DNA from: Eubacteriales bacterium
GTDB lineage: Bacteria > Bacillota > Clostridia > Christensenellales > CAG-138
Length of the DNA: 64,000 nucleotides
NCBI GenBank assembly: GCA_035446965.1
Contig: DAOTGE010000005.1
Span: 7,116-71,115 of the forward strand
Reading direction: 5' to 3'
Part shown: in pieces, positions 356-64,000 of the stretch
Layout: each line of letters starts with the position of its first letter
Position numbering within the stretch: position 1 is the first letter of the stretch
Notes under the pieces: generated by a model
Seen by the model: the letters and a program-made list of their open reading frames with translations, nothing else
Told to the model about the DNA's origin: nothing
The model's database searches: none
Made by a program: the position numbers and the translations under genes

Positions 356-596
356 AAACCGCCCGGAACGGGCGGTTTGAGACCGTCAAAAAACTTGTTT
401 TTTGACGGGATAACCGCTCTTTGCCTCTCGTCCTTCGGACTTCCGGGCGGCAAAGAGCACAGAGAAACCGCCCGTTCCGGGCGATCCGTTACGCCGGATG
501 AACCGGCGCAGCCGGAATCAACGGGTTAAGGACCGCAGCCCTTAACAATCCCAAGGACTTTTTTGACAGGCTGAAACCGCCCGGAACGGGCGGTTT
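356..596 (+). repeat. Copy A of a ~195-bp hairpin-dense interspersed repeat (core ~379-573) bracketed by a 23-bp direct duplication of a terminator-like hairpin
   Basis: Core aligns by eye at roughly 90% identity with 2133-2325 (inverted) and 47955-48152. Stems: CCGTCAAAAAAC/GTTTTTTGACGG, GCTCTTTGCC/GGCAAAGAGC, CGCCCG/CGGGCG, GTTAAGG/CCTTAAC. AAACCGCCCGGAACGGGCGGTTT occurs at 356-378 and again at 574-596. Confidence 0.85.
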
Positions 597-2109: not shown

Positions 2110-2348
2110 AAAGGCGCGAATAAGCGCCTTTTAGCCTGATAAAAAAGCCTCTGGGATTGTTAAGGGCCGCAGTCCTTAACCCGTTTTTCCGGCTGCGCCG
2201 GTTCATCCGGCGGAACGGATCGCCCGGAACGGGCGGTTTCTTCGTGCTCTTTGCCGCCCGGAAGTCCGAAGGACGAGAGGCAAAGAGCGGTTGCTCCGTC
2301 AAAAAACTGGTTTTTTGACGGCCTCAAAGGCGCGAATAAGCGCCTTTT
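2110..2348 (-). repeat. Copy B (inverted) of the ~195-bp hairpin-dense repeat (core ~2133-2325) bracketed by a different 23-bp duplicated hairpin
   Basis: The reverse complement of 2133-2325 matches copy A almost base for base. AAAGGCGCGAATAAGCGCCTTTT occurs at 2110-2132 and 2326-2348. Both hairpins carry T/A runs, so they are bidirectional terminator-like. Confidence 0.85.
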
Positions 2349-3258: not shown

Positions 3259-3394
3259 TTGCTCCATCCTCCGATCGTTTCGATTGTATCATACGCCGGG
3301 TAAAAGCAGCAATTCAAACGAAAGACGGGGGGACGTCCGGACGAAAGCGAAAGAACTCGTTTGTGAACGAAACGTGAAACGTAAGCCGGACGGA

Positions 3395-3423
3395 TTGACA
3401 GCAGGAAGACATTCTCATAGAAT
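3395..3423 (+). promoter_or_regulatory. Sigma-A-type promoter of the blaI-like operon
   Basis: TTGACA (3395-3400), 17-nt spacer, TAGAAT (3418-3423). Confidence 0.55.
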
Positions 3424-3434
3424 TAAGACAAGAA

Positions 3435-3454
3435 ATTCTTAACGGGTTAAGAAT
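3435..3454. promoter_or_regulatory. Perfect 8-bp inverted repeat between promoter and start codon; candidate BlaI-family operator
   Basis: ATTCTTAA-CGGG-TTAAGAAT. A related half-site, AGAATTAAGA, overlaps the -10. Confidence 0.45.
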
Positions 3455-3470
3455 ACCGGGAGGCAGGAGA

Positions 3471-3872
3471 ATGGACAAGCGGCTCAACGATTCCGAATGG
3501 ATCATCCTGCGCGCACTCTGGGGTGCGCCGCCGATGGACCTCAGCGCGATCATCCTGCGGGTGCGTTCGCAGGACCCGGACGTTGGCTGGGACTACAAAA
3601 CCTACCACAGCTTTTTGCGCATCCTGCTGCGAAAAGGATATGTGAGCGCCGAAAAGCACGGAAAGAACAATCTTTACAGCGCGGCGATCACCGAAGATCA
3701 GGCGCTTTCCTACGAGACGGAAAGCCTGATTTCGCGCAGGAGTTACTATGGCTCGGTTTCCAGCCTTATGGTGCACATGGCCGAGCAGGGGACGCTGACG
3801 AGCCGGGAAAAAGAAGAACTCGTCGCGCTCGCGGCCAGACTCGCGGAGGAAGACGCGAAAACAAAGGGCTGA
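3471..3872 (+). CDS. BlaI/MecI/CopY family transcriptional repressor
   Basis: 133 aa. The N-terminal wHTH (SEWIILRALWG...DLSAIILRV) and overall size fit the penicillinase-repressor family. SD is GGGAGGCAGGAGA. Confidence 0.85.
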   Translation: MDKRLNDSEWIILRALWGAPPMDLSAIILRVRSQDPDVGWDYKTYHSFLRILLRKGYVSAEKHGKNNLYSAAITEDQALSYETESLISRRSYYGSVSSLMVHMAEQGTLTSREKEELVALAARLAEEDAKTKG

Positions 3873-13503: not shown

Positions 13504-13586
13504 TGGTGCGGCCGGAGGGATTTGAACCCTCAAGCTTTCGCCGACGGATTTTAAGTCCGTTGTGTATGCCGTTCCACCACGGCCGC
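13504..13586 (-). tRNA. tRNA-Leu (anticodon UAA), long variable arm, CCA encoded
   Basis: Reverse complement reads GCGGCCG-TG-GTGGAACGGCATACAC-A-ACGGA-CTTAAAA-TCCGT-(variable arm CGGCGAAAGCTTGA)-GAGGG-TTCAAAT-CCCTC-CGGCCGC-ACCA. This is a cloverleaf with a 7-bp acceptor stem and a TTCAAAT T-loop. Confidence 0.9.
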
Positions 13587-46233: not shown

Positions 46234-47115
46234 ATGTTCGGCTATATCAGGCCGCTGGAATGCGAATTGAAAGTGCGCGAGCAGGCGGAGTACCGCGCGC
46301 ATTACTGCGGCGTGTGCAAGGCCATCGGCAGACGGTACGGCCAGATCGAGCGGCTTGCGCTGAGCTATGAGTGCGCGTTCCTGGCGGCGTTCCTTACCGC
46401 GCTTTCCGGCGGCAGCGGGTATTCGCGCGGCAACTGCGGCCCGCGCTGCTACCGCGGCAAGAGGCCGATTGCCAATCCGTCGCCCGCGGTCGATTATGCC
46501 GCGGACATTAACGTGCTGCTCGCCTGGTATCAAAAGGCGGACGACGCGCTGGACGAAAAGCGTTTTTCCACCGTCATGTCGCGTGCGGCGCTCCGGCGTG
46601 CTTACCGCAAAGCGGCGCGCAGGCATCCCGGCTTAAACAAAGAACTCGGCGCGAGCATGGACCGCCTGCACGAAATCGAAAAAGGCAAAATTGCGTCCAC
46701 AGACGAACCGAGCGACGCGTTCGGGCAATTTCTTTCCGCCGTTGTGCTTCATGCGCCGAACCTGCCGGAAGCGGAACGGCAGGCCAGCGGCTGGATGTTT
46801 TACAACCTCGGCAAATGGGTCTATCTGGCCGACGCATGGGACGACCGCGAAAAGGACGAAAAGCGCGGCAGTTACAATCCGTTTCTGCTCAACGGCATGG
46901 CGGAGAGCGACGCGGAATTTTTGATGAATATTACACTAAGCGAAACGCAGAAGGCGTTTGACTTGCTTACGTTTTCGCAGCCGTACGGGCTGATTGAAAA
47001 CGTCGTGTGGCTGGGGCTGCGGAGCGTCCAGCGGCGCGTTTTGGGACAGGAATGCAAAGCCGGGGAATGCGGAAATGCGCAGCCGGCAAAGGAGAGAACA
47101 GATGAACCCCTATAA
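46234..47115 (+). CDS. DUF5685-like protein (function unknown)
   Basis: 293 aa. N-terminus [41 protein letters not shown]. Confidence 0.55.
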
Positions 47116-47740
47116 AGTTCTGGGTGTGAGCGAGAACGCCTCGCAGGAAGAAATCCGCAACGCTTATCTGGCGTTGGTCAAAAAATATCATCCGGATAAA
47201 TATACGGACAATCCGCTCAAGGAACTGGCCGGCGAAAAGCTCAAGGAAATCAACCAGGCCTACGAGATGCTCACGAAAAAGCAGTCTTCGGCGGGCAGCG
47301 GCGGTTCCTACGGGCCGGGGAGCGCATACGGCCAGAGCACACGCGGCTCCGGCAGTTATTCGAGGCCGGGCGGTTCGACCTACAGCGGGCCGAACGCCGC
47401 GGAGTTCAACCGGGCGCGCTCCTGGATCAATCAGAACAATCTAAACGCCGCGCGGACGATTCTGGACGGGCCGAATATTGTTCACAACGCCGAGTGGAAC
47501 TATCTTTACGGCGTGATCTATCTGCGCCAGGGGTGGTATGAGAAAGCGCATGCGTGCATCAAACGGGCATATGAGATGGAGCCGGACAATCCGGACTACC
47601 GCAACGCATACGTTTCGCTCAACAACTCCGGCAGGCCGTATGCCAACACCGGTACCAGCGGGATGGACGCTTCGCCCTGCTGCGACGTCTGCTCCGCGCT
47701 GATGTGCCTGAACTGCTGCTGCGGCGGGGACTGTTGCTAA
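47102..47740 (+). CDS. J-domain protein with a Gly/Ser linker, a TPR-like helical region and a C-terminal cysteine string
   Basis: Met37 of ORF 46994..47740. YKVLGV...KKYHPDKY (HPD). Last 20 aa are [20 protein letters not shown]. The start overlaps the DUF5685 gene by 14 nt. Confidence 0.85.
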
Positions 47741-47744
47741 GCCA

Positions 47745-47954
47745 TCGGAAACAACTGGTTTTCAATGGGTTAATCGTTCTCTGCCGCTCTTTCTCCGGAC
47801 TCGCGGACGGCAAGGAGCACAGAGGAACCGCCCGTTCCGGGCGATCCGTTACGCCGGATGAACCGGCGCAGCCGGAATCAACAGGTTAAGGGCTGCGGCC
47901 TTTAACAATCCCAAGAACTTTTTTGACAAGCTGAAGCGCCCTGAACGGGCGCTC
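47745..47954 (+). repeat. Copy C1 of the hairpin-dense repeat (5' part diverged) ending in hairpin AGCGCCCTGAACGGGCGCTC
   Basis: From ~47815 onward it is nearly identical to copies A, B and C2 (GAACCGCCCGTTCCGGGCGATCCGTTACGCCGGATGAACCGGCGCAGCCGGAATCAAC...). It begins 5 nt after the J-protein stop. Confidence 0.8.
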
Positions 47955-48171
47955 GAGACCGTCAAAAAACCCGTTTTTTGACGGGATAACCGCTCTTTGC
48001 CTCTCGCCCTTCCGGGCTTCCGGGCGGCAAAGAGCACAAAGAAACCGCCCGTTCCGGGCGATCCGTTACGCCGGATGAACCGGCGCAGCCGGAATCAACA
48101 GGTTAAGGGCCGCGGCCCTTAACAATCCCAAGAACTTTTTTGACAGGCTGAAGCGCCCTGAACGGGCGCTC
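47955..48171 (+). repeat. Copy C2 of the hairpin-dense repeat, in tandem with C1, ending in the same hairpin plus a T-run
   Basis: Full-length core GAGACCGTCAAAAAAC...GACAGGCTGAA. The hairpin AGCGCCCTGAACGGGCGCTC is repeated at 47934-47954 and 48151-48171, and the second copy is followed by TTTTTT. Confidence 0.85.
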
Positions 48172-48192
48172 TTTTTTATGTCGCTGTTCAAT

Positions 48193-48798
48193 TTATTTCT
48201 GTGTGGAGTCGACTATGATATCACAGCTTTGTTCGATGTTCAGCGCGGAAAAATATGCGTTTTCCAGTGGAATCCAGCGCGAACGGAACAATTCGAGCAT
48301 CCGTTCGCCGTTCCGCGCGCGGATGCGCTCCAGCTGGAGCGCAGGGGCGACGCGGTAAAAGATTTTCAAATCGTAATACGGCGTGAGCAGGGGATGCAGG
48401 CTGTATGCGCCCTCCACGATGGAAACGGCGCGCGGCGCGATTGTTTCGCGGGCGAGCAGCCGGTCGAGGTGGCAGTCGTATGGTTCGACATGCGCAGGCT
48501 TTCCCGCCGAAACCGGCAGGAGGATATCGCGCAGGAAGCGCTCCGCGTCCACGTTGCCGCCGGGCTGCGAAAGCCGTTCGGGCGTGCGCATGTGCGGCTG
48601 GAGAAAATAGTCGTCCATATGGAAAACATTTGCGTTCAGCAGCGCTCCGAGCTGGGCGGCCGCGGTGGTCTTGCCGGCGGAACTGTTCCCGTCGATGGCG
48701 ATGACAACGCGCAGCTTGCCGCGCAGCAATTCGGAAACGCGGGCGGCGATTTCGTCGTCCGCCTGATCGGTAAAGCGGTTTGGGCGTGTCGGCTGCAT
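48193..48798 (-). CDS. P-loop nucleoside/nucleotide kinase (uridine-kinase-like)
   Basis: 201 aa. Walker A IDGNSSAGKTT. AGGAGA SD. Confidence 0.6.
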   Translation of the reverse strand: MQPTRPNRFTDQADDEIAARVSELLRGKLRVVIAIDGNSSAGKTTAAAQLGALLNANVFHMDDYFLQPHMRTPERLSQPGGNVDAERFLRDILLPVSAGKPAHVEPYDCHLDRLLARETIAPRAVSIVEGAYSLHPLLTPYYDLKIFYRVAPALQLERIRARNGERMLELFRSRWIPLENAYFSALNIEQSCDIIVDSTQK

Positions 48799-63803: not shown

Positions 63804-64000
63804 TAGCGGGTGCCGACCGTCATGAAACCTGCGTTTGGCGGGACCACCATGTTTTAACGGGGAATGGCAAAAGCGCAAAGACAGCGCATGAATCGCGCGA
63901 CAGGGTATGCCGGACGAACCGGCGCGGAGGCAATCGATGGACGCCAAGCGCTGCGATACGCAATAATACCTGACGGCGTTTTGATCGGATGCCTTTACCT

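Follow-up and report, generated by a model that had tools for sequence, protein, structure and literature searches.

Among described systems, IS1272, a member of the IS1182 family, goes into terminator hairpins irrespective of their sequence (PMC4923244). The staphylococcal IS1272/TnSha1 shares its transposase family with the elements studied here and likewise uses stem-loops as insertion sites, which are often confirmed terminators a short way downstream of a gene, and IS1272 variants with duplicated terminal sequences are a further likeness (PMC4923244, PMC5678879). In the model of Wan et al. (2017), attack of the 3' ends on the 5' feet of a cruciform leads to a second copy of the entire stem-loop (PMC5678879, Fig 13, pathway b). 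Pathway b predicts exactly the product found in the present family, but it is a hypothetical branch of that model and not the behaviour observed for IS1272 (PMC5678879), whereas here, as inferred from sequence only, it is dominant over about 70 loci. We found no published whole-terminator duplication by an IS1182 member in the literature beyond this model (PMC5678879), in which whole-hairpin duplication was sketched as one branch. In IS1272 the target hairpin is deleted or replaced and no target duplication arises, whereas in the present family the whole hairpin is duplicated and kept on both sides.

Bacterial class C group II introns also recognise the stem-loops of intrinsic terminators as insertion sites. 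These ribozyme retroelements measure 600 nt or more and go in downstream of the hairpin, which is not duplicated; the present element differs from them in having no resemblance to intron domains, and Rfam gave no hit. In CRISPR repeat duplication by Cas1-Cas2 and in casposon integration, strands are transferred at staggered positions on the two borders of a partly palindromic segment and the gaps are then repaired; the integrase is unrelated, and a ruler fixes the repeat length. A whole segment is duplicated in those systems as it is here, but the length of the present duplication tracks each hairpin. For the IS1182 family, ISfinder reportedly gives direct repeats of '0-60 bp'. To our knowledge, duplication of a complete terminator, with its variable length, has not been described for any of the repeat families Correia/NEMIS, ERIC, RUP, BOX, SPRITE and bcr1. 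These families resemble the present one in being short, multi-copy, intergenic, hairpin-rich and often co-transcribed, but they make short fixed duplications (e.g. TA) or none (in part PMC10969869). MITEPye1 of Paracoccus yeei is likewise non-autonomous and intergenic, with IS1182-like terminal repeats and predicted stem-loops; it differs in its 4-bp direct repeats and its 1-3 copies, has no reported hairpin targeting or covariation, and shows no sequence relationship to the present family (PMC11578231).

In this study, we analysed a repeat region behind a J-domain gene in a 64-kb stretch of DNA, which is referred to as the window. The results indicated that the region very likely consists of two tandem ~195-bp MITE copies of an IS1182-family IS, which targets and duplicates terminator hairpins, and that the structure of the copies is most likely kept for mobility. 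An apparent structured RNA with covariation is in this way resolved into a mobile element.

Layout of the tandem units

The initial annotation had described two units arranged head to tail after the stop codon of the J-domain protein, and both were present at 47738-48171 (~195 bp each). The features of the locus are as follows:

47102-47740, plus strand: J-domain (DnaJ/TPR-like) protein gene, from its translation and a PF00226 DnaJ match
47738/47741-47933, plus strand: unit C1, putative older MITE copy whose left terminus has degenerated and reads TAAGCCATCGGAAAC in place of GAGACCGTCAAAAAAC
47934-47954, plus strand: 5' hairpin AAGCGCCCTGAACGGGCGCTC, terminator-type, 21 bp, the 5' copy of the C2 target-site duplication and the hairpin downstream of C1
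47955-48150, plus strand: unit C2, putative full-length MITE from GAGACCGTCAAAAAAC to CTTTTTTGACAGGCTG, with termini matching the IS ends (nhmmer 227 bits, full profile)
48151-48177, plus strand: 3' hairpin copy (48151-48171) and T-run TTTTTT (48172-48177), from the target-site duplication analysis and a terminator scan that calls the site at 48152-48170

The exact J-domain protein was present on 16 contigs, with a Pfam DnaJ match. Its stop codon TAA (47738-47740) occupies the place of the first three bases of C1 and abuts or overlaps the degenerate left end. C1 has no hairpin copy on its upstream side. In the first ~95 aligned positions C1 is 70.7% identical to C2, compared with 97% in the remainder, which agrees with the earlier description of C1 as diverged in its 5' part and lacking an upstream hairpin; C2 matched the profile over its complete length, again as described. 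Because C1 of strain L152 is only 65-70% identical to C2 over the full length, the comparison shows the window's C1 to be an apparent mosaic, with a 3' half overwritten via gene conversion with a young copy. The 3' halves of C1 and C2 are not independent witnesses because of this conversion.

The hairpin at 47934-47954 has no T-run, is followed by GAGACC and was not called in the terminator scan; on the plus strand, the locus has a single intact site that resembles an intrinsic terminator, at 48151-48177. The serial arrangement of the two hairpins had been suggested as a possible double terminator; they are instead two copies of the duplicated target, with a T-run only at the 3' copy. C2 most likely used the hairpin left downstream of the older C1 as its target, which would give the order C1-hairpin-C2-hairpin, and the gene conversion over the 3' half of C1 would have come after the dimer had formed. 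Tandem dimers with a shared hairpin were also found at two other loci (L001 and L010). Among the contigs reaching past the stop codon of the J-domain gene, all have C1 and none offers an empty site for C1 or C2; those long enough all have C2 too, and several end within the repeat.

The remaining family copies in the window are as follows:

356-596, plus strand: copy A (379-573) with a flanking 23-bp duplicated hairpin, AAACCGCCCGGAACGGGCGGTTT, at 356-378 and 574-596
2110-2347, minus strand: copy B (2132-2325) with a flanking 22-bp duplicated hairpin, AAAGGCGCTTATTCGCGCCTTT, at 2326-2347 and 2110-2131
63815-63985, plus strand: fifth family copy, strongly decayed (nhmmer E = 4e-7)

The window thus holds four copies (A, B, C1 and C2) and one decayed copy. 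Copy B lies on the minus strand, antisense relative to the adjacent gene. No IS1182 transposase was found in the window by tblastn. In the search for empty sites of the window's own copies, the protein encoded at 982-2067 had no public records, and the site orthologous to copy A in L165 carried a different, truncated insertion and was not empty.

Relationship to an IS1182-family element

The family profile gave 188 hits in 141 public loci; 110 of these hits were non-redundant full-length copies, and copy lengths were 191-197 nt. More than 100 copies were hosted by Oscillospiraceae, Christensenellaceae and related genomes, and only one copy was found on viral contigs. The copies were gathered with a search pattern inside hairpin P4, so that the conservation of P4 in the main set exists by construction. 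One candidate copy in Thermomicrobiales (L020) was rejected as a chance 24-nt match.

The terminal inverted repeats of the MITE, GAGACCGTCAAAAAAC and the reverse complement of the right end, CAGCCTGTCAAAAAAG, matched at 12/16 positions, including 9/9 in GTCAAAAAA. For the right end in reverse complement, the consensus of the family is CAGCCTGTCAAAAAAGTCC, which equals the left terminal repeat of the IS over ~19 nt; the right end of C2 in the window is one base off this consensus (GTTC for GTCC). The left end GAGACCGTCAAAAAAC repeats the shared terminus imperfectly and in inverted form. A helix pairing the left-hand GTCAAAAAA with the right-hand TTTTTTGAC would join two segments that are both nearly invariant, so no covariation is readable there.

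The IS and the MITE share a MAG and also contigs (L035, L022). In L035 the repeat body is fused to an IS with a 476-aa transposase, and L022 has the same fusion in the opposite orientation. The parent IS is ~1.55-1.6 kb long, runs from CAGCCTGTCAAA to TTTGACAGGCTG, has a single ORF of 455-476 aa and carries subterminal hairpins at both ends. Its transposase has the Pfam domains DUF772 and DDE_Tnp_1_6, and three intact homologues (P0001, P0082 and P0027) reached 388, 372 and 402 bits with NF033551, the NCBIfam model for IS1182, which has a cut-off of 270 bits. The IS1182 family is defined by one ORF of ~450-500 aa, terminal inverted repeats and a total length of ~1.3-1.9 kb, and the parent IS shows all three. 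The ~150-bp body of the MITE had no detectable homology within the IS.

We also considered an origin from PATE/REP elements derived from IS200/IS605, which have subterminal hairpins, no terminal inverted repeats or duplication, insertion 3' of a fixed tetra- or pentanucleotide and a Y1 HUH transposase. This candidate was rejected, as the present family has inverted terminal repeats, long duplications, no common target sequence and a DDE transposase.

Duplication of whole hairpins at the target site

In 71 of 106 non-redundant copies, an exactly abutting direct repeat of 19-34 bp was present on both sides of the element. The repeat was a GC stem-loop, and the duplicated stem-loops (19-35 bp, median 24) differed in sequence at every locus; no target sequence was common to the insertion sites. 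Among 59 distinct duplications, the outermost bases were complementary in 47 and the boundaries were symmetric about the dyad in 45, and the perfect stems of the target hairpins were mostly 7-13 bp long. Two orthologous empty sites were found: L104 has a single hairpin where L011 is occupied, and L077 has a single GAGCGCCGTCGGATTTTCCGCCGGCGCTC where L095 is occupied. Since one hairpin stands at both empty sites and two stand at the occupied ones, insertion therefore duplicates the whole intrinsic-terminator hairpin. We infer the mobility of the MITE from its copy number, its duplications and the empty sites, which lie in related, not identical, genomes. The duplications, the empty sites, the IS-like termini and the IS fusion argue that the unit is mobile DNA and not a resident RNA gene. 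The family, with its ~70 insertions, its two empty sites and a pair of related ISs of full length, is a large natural data set for a poorly understood mode of insertion.

A T-rich tail followed the 3' hairpin copy at 43/67 sites, and an A-rich head preceded the 5' copy at 32/67. By codon-usage likelihood, which replaced a longest-ORF call that had given an implausible 18 'divergent' cases, 28 elements lay between convergent genes, 12 + 11 between co-directional genes and none between divergent ones. The target sites are stem-loops of the intrinsic-terminator type at the 3' ends of genes, that is, predicted terminators.

Full-length ISs with a whole-hairpin duplication were found as well, with a 23-bp repeat in L178-L183 (23/23 in L181) and a 19-bp repeat in L171-L176. 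The five closest full-length IS loci (L142, L143, L144, L145 and a Thermocaproicibacter melissae plasmid) have a hairpin at each end, and the left one is not the same as the right one. About 30 of the 106 MITE copies also abut unlike left and right hairpins. We attribute unlike flanks to recombination between copies or to chimeric assembly, and L151 has a swapped flank; a mode of insertion that involves two hairpins is another conceivable source. In L045, the duplicated hairpins differ by a flipped loop (CTCT vs AGAG).

The body of the MITE might encode an RNA cofactor of the transposase that directs or assists insertion, like the bridge/seek RNA of IS110 or the ωRNA of IS200/IS605, and a highly structured non-coding body does lie beside an IS end, to which it is fused in L035 and L022. 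However, most full-length IS copies (L142-L147, L171-L185) have no such body, and at least two of these elements still duplicate a whole hairpin. The targets share no sequence that a guide could use, and the transposase is of the DDE_Tnp_1 type, not DEDD or TnpB. We consider an RNA cofactor very improbable.

Internal hairpins and covariation

Five hairpins were recognised within C2, and they are listed without a strand:

47959-47984: P1, palindrome CCGTCAAAAAAC-CC-GTTTTTTGACGG, with an IS-left-end-like arm and an IS-right-end-like arm back to back
47992-48035: P2, GCTCTTTGCC...GGCAAAGAGC, enclosing P2b at 48006-48017 (GCCC-TTCC-GGGC)
48046-48060: P3, CGCCCG-TTC-CGGGCG, with a constant stem and a varying loop (TTC, AAA, TAAA, TTGACA)
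48062-48093: P4, core GCCGG-ATGAA-CCGGC plus an outer extension, without variation in the main set because of the search pattern
48102-48123: P5, perfect 22-nt palindrome GTTAAGGGCCGCGGCCCTTAAC; 71 copies have CG at pair 164-170, and 8 have UA

In-silico folding of the unit, which had been proposed as a check, gave a strong fold, with z-scores of -8.8 (plus strand) and -7.0 (minus strand). The window has three occurrences of the 22-nt palindrome GTCAAAAAACnnGTTTTTTGAC, against a chance expectation of 0; their loops are TT, CA (as read on B's element strand) and CC. The P1 stem had been called invariant with a variable loop; this is correct inside the window, but distant copies carry compensated changes (GACTGAAAAC/GTTTTCAGTC and GTTAAAAAGC/GCTTTTTAAT). 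The reported change of the inner hairpin from GTCC-TTC-GGAC in A and B to GCCC-TTCC-GGGC in C2 was seen, and GTTAAGGGCCGCGGCCCTTAAC in C2 was confirmed to be a perfect palindrome. P3 on the minus strand was terminator-like in the terminator scan.

We then measured covariation in 89 copies that were <97% identical. The RNAalifold consensus of these copies was poor, with alternative pairings mixed, and an explicit P1-P5 structure with pair counting was used in its place. Standard pairs made up 95% of the cells, compared with 33-52% in slid controls. Double changes occurred in 18 of 56 stem pairs vs 10.4±1.7 in shuffles, and 0/500 shuffles reached 18; the number of double-change cells was 126 vs 42±6. 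The pairing-preserving changes that the initial annotation had noted in a few copies thus exceed the controls when many copies are aligned. The strongest covariation lay in P2 (pairs 44-85, 45-84, 46-83, 57-68 and 58-67 of alignment A2), and P4 covaries in hitch-hiking distant copies (GCATCGG/CCGATGC and CGGCGGC/GCCGCCG).

Compensatory changes could also arise without selection, through templated correction of quasi-palindromes (intrastrand template switching) or through gene conversion between copies. Gene conversion among copies does occur, as in the C1 mosaic, and the flipped loop of L045 is the type of event that palindromes undergo. Moreover, pairs 45-84 and 46-83 are linked in one subfamily, so that the independent events are fewer than the cells. 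However, resident copies keep uncorrected mismatches, with 68 of 74 singleton stem mutations breaking a pair, which indicates that correction in situ is weak. Shared variants are ~2.2-fold depleted in stems vs unpaired columns (p = 1.7e-6), and stems with 20-30-nt spacers (P2 and the outer part of P4) covary too. A purely mutational origin of the covariation is therefore unlikely.

Where selection acts

Singleton variants numbered 0.77 per stem column and 0.47 per unpaired column, and shared variants 0.51 and 1.13, respectively (singleton vs shared, Fisher p = 1.7e-6), where 'shared' variants may include mutations inherited by orthologous copies of related strains. Watson-Crick pairing was kept in 6/74 singleton cells vs 242/480 shared cells (p = 4e-13). 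The shared intermediates comprised 11 G·U types vs 14 A·C types. The earlier claim that the hairpins themselves are under selection stood for variants shared by subfamilies, which avoid stems or are compensated, but not for resident copies, in which singletons are at least as dense in stems as elsewhere. Because private mutations break stems freely, shared ones avoid stems or compensate, G·U and A·C are alike in frequency and orientation is random, selection appears to act on the lineages that go on transposing, probably on DNA hairpins. Covariation in a repeat family can stem from selection on transposability and not on RNA, which calls for caution in scans for non-coding RNA.

A structured RNA of the host under RNA-level selection, such as a 3'-UTR mRNA stabiliser, a 3'-derived small RNA or a terminator/insulator module, would fit the strong fold and the covariation. 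Read-through into the element from the 5' hairpin, which lacks a T-run, with termination at the 3' copy is plausible, and some old copies whose termini have decayed (L038, L100 and L023) retain the P2-P4 core, located after rpoD-like and other genes. The near-fixed plus-strand U·G pairs 55-74 and 119-141, which are A·C on the other strand, give a weak hint in the same direction. However, singletons are not depleted in stems and mostly break pairs, and the minus strand has a comparable fold. Orientation is random (12 vs 11 between co-directional genes), the gene next to copy B runs antisense to it, and shared G·U types do not exceed A·C types. A strand-specific RNA is disfavoured because G·U and A·C are equally frequent and orientation is random. 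No Rfam family matched the element, even at E <= 10; with Rfam 15 at the gathering score, the whole window gave only tRNA-Leu, and 47600-48300 gave chance-level matches (E >= 0.55). We regard a host RNA as quite unlikely.

Proposed insertion mechanism

In its boldest form, which we consider possible rather than probable, the mechanism would be that of a subgroup of IS1182 DDE transposases reading DNA shape instead of sequence. They may join the element to the feet of a terminator cruciform or single-strand hairpin, the target-site duplication would be the whole 19-35 bp terminator, and the MITE may need a five-hairpin DNA fold in cis. In the mechanism that we favour for the locus, the DDE transposase of a full-length IS would act in trans and recognise the shape of its target, either an extruded cruciform or a single-stranded DNA hairpin. 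The two 3' ends of the element would be joined to the hairpin at its 5' foot, one on each strand, and gap repair would copy the entire palindrome. As a result, the upstream gene would stay intact, the terminator of hairpin and T-run would be rebuilt downstream, and the upstream hairpin copy would have no T-run. The hairpins P1-P5 would be a cis requirement for mobility, kept in still-transposing lineages, and would most likely work as DNA hairpins like the subterminal ones of the parent IS rather than as RNA.

The data fit a cruciform target and a single-strand hairpin target alike.

If the target is read by shape, the family would represent a sequence-independent, structure-directed integration system. 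Insertion would be harmless because a complete terminator is rebuilt downstream, and this would explain the high copy number without gene damage. If the five-hairpin DNA fold acts in cis, the family would offer an unusual example of covariation that selection for transposability keeps up in DNA instead of RNA.

Coding potential

The initial annotation had preferred a functional RNA or a structured single-stranded DNA intermediate to a protein-coding relic. The functional RNA was not supported, the single-stranded DNA intermediate is compatible with our results, and the relic was rightly set aside, as no coding signal was found in the unit. One minus-strand frame is open across the consensus, as might be seen in a decaying protein-coding gene or the remnant of a small ORF, but this frame is open in only 32/89 copies. 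It has no start codon, no ORF is conserved, and the copy lengths of 191-197 nt reflect indels that are not multiples of three. The probability of a coding remnant is practically negligible, and the variation among copies follows base pairing, not codon position.

Copies of the repeat in the window

Five members of the ~195-bp repeat family were located in the window. By reading positions 47400-48500 and aligning the copies, we confirmed the tandem units that the initial annotation had described behind the J-protein stop. The motifs it had listed, for which the chance expectation is zero, were also present: the P1 palindrome with a varying 2-nt centre (P1-P5 denote the hairpins inside the unit, P2 including the inner hairpins P2a and P2b), the GTCC/GGAC versus GCCC/GGGC difference between copies, and the perfect 22-nt palindrome of C2. 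When the window was searched with Rfam and ARAGORN, the sole match was a tRNA-Leu (anticodon TAA) at 13504-13586 on the minus strand.

Family members and adjoining features in the window
379-573, plus strand: copy A, full
2132-2325, minus strand: copy B, full
47738-47740: stop codon TAA of the J-domain protein gene
directly behind this stop, up to 47933: unit C1
47934-47954: 21-bp stem-loop AAGCGCCCTGAACGGGCGCTC between C1 and C2
47955-48150: unit C2
48151-48171: second copy of the stem-loop AAGCGCCCTGAACGGGCGCTC, then TTTTTT
63815-63985, plus strand: fifth family member, strongly decayed, immediately behind the upstream gene's stop and at the very end of the window

Duplication of target hairpins

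A scan of species-representative genomes yielded 22 true loci, in Oscillospiraceae, Christensenellaceae, "Eubacteriales" and Clostridiales MAGs, and a metagenome scan added 117 loci, with one copy on a viral contig. Profile search gave 188 matches, 110 of them non-redundant full-length copies. In the window, copies A, B and C2 each have one identical stem-loop on both sides, which changes from locus to locus (AAACCGCCCGGAACGGGCGGTTT for A, AAAGGCGCTTATTCGCGCCTTT for B, AAGCGCCCTGAACGGGCGCTC for C2). A flanking direct repeat of 19-34 bp was found in 71 of the 106 copies with both flanks available; this repeat, a palindromic stem-loop rich in GC, directly adjoins the element at either end with no bases between. 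In many of the other copies, the hairpins on the two sides have diverged but are recognisably related. Among 59 distinct duplications, the outermost bases were complementary in 47 and the boundaries were mirror-symmetric about the dyad in 45, and duplication length tracked each hairpin (20-35 bp as scored for this set, median 24). The duplicated segments resemble intrinsic terminators, in many cases bidirectional ones: of 67 cases, 43 had a T-rich tract after the 3' copy and 32 an A-rich tract ahead of the 5' copy.

The loci retrieved included two orthologous empty sites. At one of them, a lone hairpin in L104 corresponds to hairpin-element-hairpin in L011; at the other, L095 carries the element with GAGCGCCGGAGGATTTTCCTCCGGCGCTC on either side, and L077 only one GAGCGCCGTCGGATTTTCCGCCGGCGCTC. 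What is duplicated at the target site is therefore truly an entire terminator hairpin.

The orthologue of the copy A site in another strain (L165, 960-1200) carries another copy, truncated to its right third, and another downstream hairpin; the terminator region of copy A has therefore been hit by insertions more than once and is a hot spot. The duplicated hairpins of the L045 element (3380-3574) have identical stems and a flipped loop (CTCT vs AGAG); one hairpin copy appears to have been remade with the complementary strand as template, unless its loop was inverted later.

Proposed insertion mechanism and related systems

The element is associated with an IS1182-type DDE transposase family, its targets are alike in structure and not in sequence, and the duplication has the length of the hairpin and boundaries symmetric about its dyad. 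We infer that the target would be read as an extruded cruciform or single-stranded DNA hairpin, that each 3' end of the element would be joined, on its own strand, to the hairpin's 5' foot, and that gap filling would then duplicate the palindrome.

For the IS1182 family, ISfinder gives 0-60 bp as the length of the direct repeats, which suggests that curators have met long repeats. Beyond the model cited next, our literature searches found no paper on whole-terminator duplication as an outcome of this family. The proposed route corresponds to pathway b of the model of Wan et al. for IS1272 (PMC5678879). Hairpin targeting is already known from IS1272, also of the IS1182 family, but that element takes the hairpin-deleting branch (PMC5678879, PMC4923244), whereas here the hairpin is duplicated. 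MITEPye1, a described IS1182-family MITE, has 4-bp repeats (PMC11578231), in contrast to the whole-hairpin duplication here. What is new here is an element family in anaerobic Clostridia that duplicates entire terminators at many loci, with empty sites, and a MITE with covarying internal hairpins, putatively attributable to selection for mobility.

Probable history of the tandem dimer

The flanking hairpins of C2 match each other at 21/21 positions and its sequence is near the family consensus; C2 is therefore young. C1 is 70.7% identical to C2 in the first ~95 positions and 97% in the remainder, and it has no hairpin on its upstream side. In another strain (L152), C1 is 65-70% identical to C2 along its entire length, and the two C1 alleles are 98.9% identical over the first stretch and 65% identical after it. 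C1 is an old copy, and gene conversion has therefore replaced the 3' half of the allele in the window. At its degenerate left end, C1 opens with the three bases of the J-protein stop codon (47738-47740) and reads TAAGCC in place of the family's GAGACC or GAGGCC; the insertion may have set or kept the end of this gene.

In the simplest history, the hairpin downstream of C1 would have served as the insertion target of C2. Tandem MITE pairs with a common hairpin also occur in L001 and L010, and two different IS1182-family elements stand head to tail with a single hairpin between them in L184 (1524-1700) and L171 (1880-1960), the full-length counterpart of the MITE dimer. Such recurring pairs are expected if flanking hairpins stay good targets. 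The initial annotation had considered two hairpins in series as a double terminator. In a terminator scan, the downstream hairpin (48152-48170 plus CTTTTTT) was the only copy to score; the upstream copy has lost its T-run because GAGACC comes next. The two hairpins are therefore not a designed double terminator.

Parent IS1182-family element

A search with the orphan termini led to contig L035, in which a reverse-oriented repeat body (~150 bp, P2-P5) is joined to a complete IS. This IS begins with CTGTCAAAAAAGTCCCGTTGTTGGGACTTTTTTGGTATAAT and then ATG, has a transposase gene of 476 codons with one in-frame stop, and ends in ...GGAATCGGGTTCTTTGACAGGCTG. In L022 (4150-4492, minus strand) the body is joined to the other IS end. 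The fusion point coincides with the position of P1, at the IS left end in L035 (209-1875) and at the right end in L022; one frame of the body in L035 is open and continues in phase into the transposase start (ORF from 234). Such fusions may represent a "long" form of the IS in which one end is duplicated, or else recombination of an IS terminus with a P1 arm. The transposase has DUF772 and DDE_Tnp_1_6 domains, and intact homologues scored 388-402 bits against the NCBIfam IS1182 cut-off of 270.

Stand-alone IS copies (L142-L147) span CAGCCTGTCAAAAAAG to CTTTGACAGGCTG. The reverse complement of the MITE right end (CAGCCTGTCAAAAAAGTCC, family consensus) matches 19 nt of the left terminal repeat of the IS; the right end of C2 matches it at 18/19, with GTTC in place of GTCC. 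At its left end the MITE carries this terminus again, inverted and imperfect, and the P1 palindrome is in effect IS-left-like and IS-right-like arms placed back to back. Comparison of the body with the IS interior revealed no detectable counterpart. By every criterion testable on sequence, the unit is a MITE, a well-known class of elements.

Two full-length relatives duplicate hairpins as the MITE does: GAGGGGAGGCAGCGCCTCCCCTC lies on either side of the element encoding P0082 (transposase 63% identical; 23/23 in L181), and CCGTCACCTTTGGTGACGT on either side of that encoding P0027 (68% identical). The five closest IS loci (L142, L143, L144, L145 and the finished Thermocaproicibacter melissae plasmid NZ_CP101828.1, L148/L150) have a GC hairpin at each end, left and right being unrelated, which simple duplication does not explain. 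Unequal hairpins were also found in about 30% of MITE copies. One of these, in L151, is the C2 of the window followed by a foreign 3' flank, the junction showing a base change specific to a subfamily; this fits recombination between copies or chimeric assembly, the likeliest source of unequal flanks. Alternatively, the two ends of an element may attack two neighbouring hairpins.

Covariation and the level of selection

We counted 56 pairs of an explicit structure (P1, P2 with P2a/P2b, P3, P4 and P5) in A2, an alignment of 89 copies less than 97% identical.

Covariation in A2
Cells with a standard pair: observed 95.0%; slid controls 33-52%
Pairs changed on both sides: observed 18; shuffled 10.4 ± 1.7 (18 reached in 0/500)
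Double-change cells: observed 126; shuffled 42 ± 6; slid 13-27
Columns 44-85: CG 68, UA 12
Columns 45-84: UA 59, GC 24
Columns 46-83: CG 60, UA 21
Columns 57-68: GC 70, AU 7, GU 9
Columns 58-67: UA 39, CG 29, UG 6
Columns 164-170: CG 71, UA 8

The T:A to C:G double change noted from the window copies is pair 58-67, among the clear cases. Some of the double changes occur together in one subfamily, and the 126 cells therefore represent perhaps ten independent events. P4 is invariant in A2 only by construction, since the search pattern sits inside it; distant copies, collected by proximity, alter P1, P2b, P3 and P4 with compensation.

Variants were then divided by frequency, singletons serving as a proxy for post-insertion decay and shared variants being taken to have arisen in lineages that kept copying.

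Variants by frequency class
Singletons: 0.77 per stem column; 0.47 per unpaired column; pair broken in 68/74
Shared (at least 3 copies): 0.51 per stem column; 1.13 per unpaired column; Watson-Crick in 242/480 cells

The classes differed in column density (p = 1.7e-6) and pairing (p = 4e-13, Fisher), indicating that resident copies decay neutrally and that pairing is important for propagation. Neither strand is favoured: G·U-type and A·C-type shared variants were equally common (11 and 14 types), fold z-scores of the two strands were about equal (-8.8 and -7.0), and, with flanking coding strands assigned by codon usage, elements lay between convergent genes in 28 cases, in co-directional pairs in 12 vs 11 by orientation, and between divergent genes in 0. 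The initial annotation had proposed a functional RNA or a structured single-stranded DNA intermediate from changes that preserve pairing. Those changes are borne out; because resident stems decay, pairing is tied to propagation and strand preference is lacking, the results point to a cis-acting DNA structure over RNA. Since the parent IS has a hairpin just inside each terminus, the transposase may recognise, along with the terminal motif, a hairpin beside it.

On the minus strand, P3 (window 48042-48064) scores terminator-like and has 19 identical bases (CGCCCGGAACGGGCGGTTT) in common with the duplicated hairpin of copy A (356-378, 574-596); either terminator stems are very stereotyped here, or parts of the body are fossil terminator hairpins. 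A separate repeat in L017 (~800-1060) consists of tandem ~36-nt units with the palindrome ACTTTTCTTTTAAGAAAAGTA and no spacers. It adjoins truncated (P1-P4 only) family members, and is also found downstream of short variants in L085, L091 and L018.
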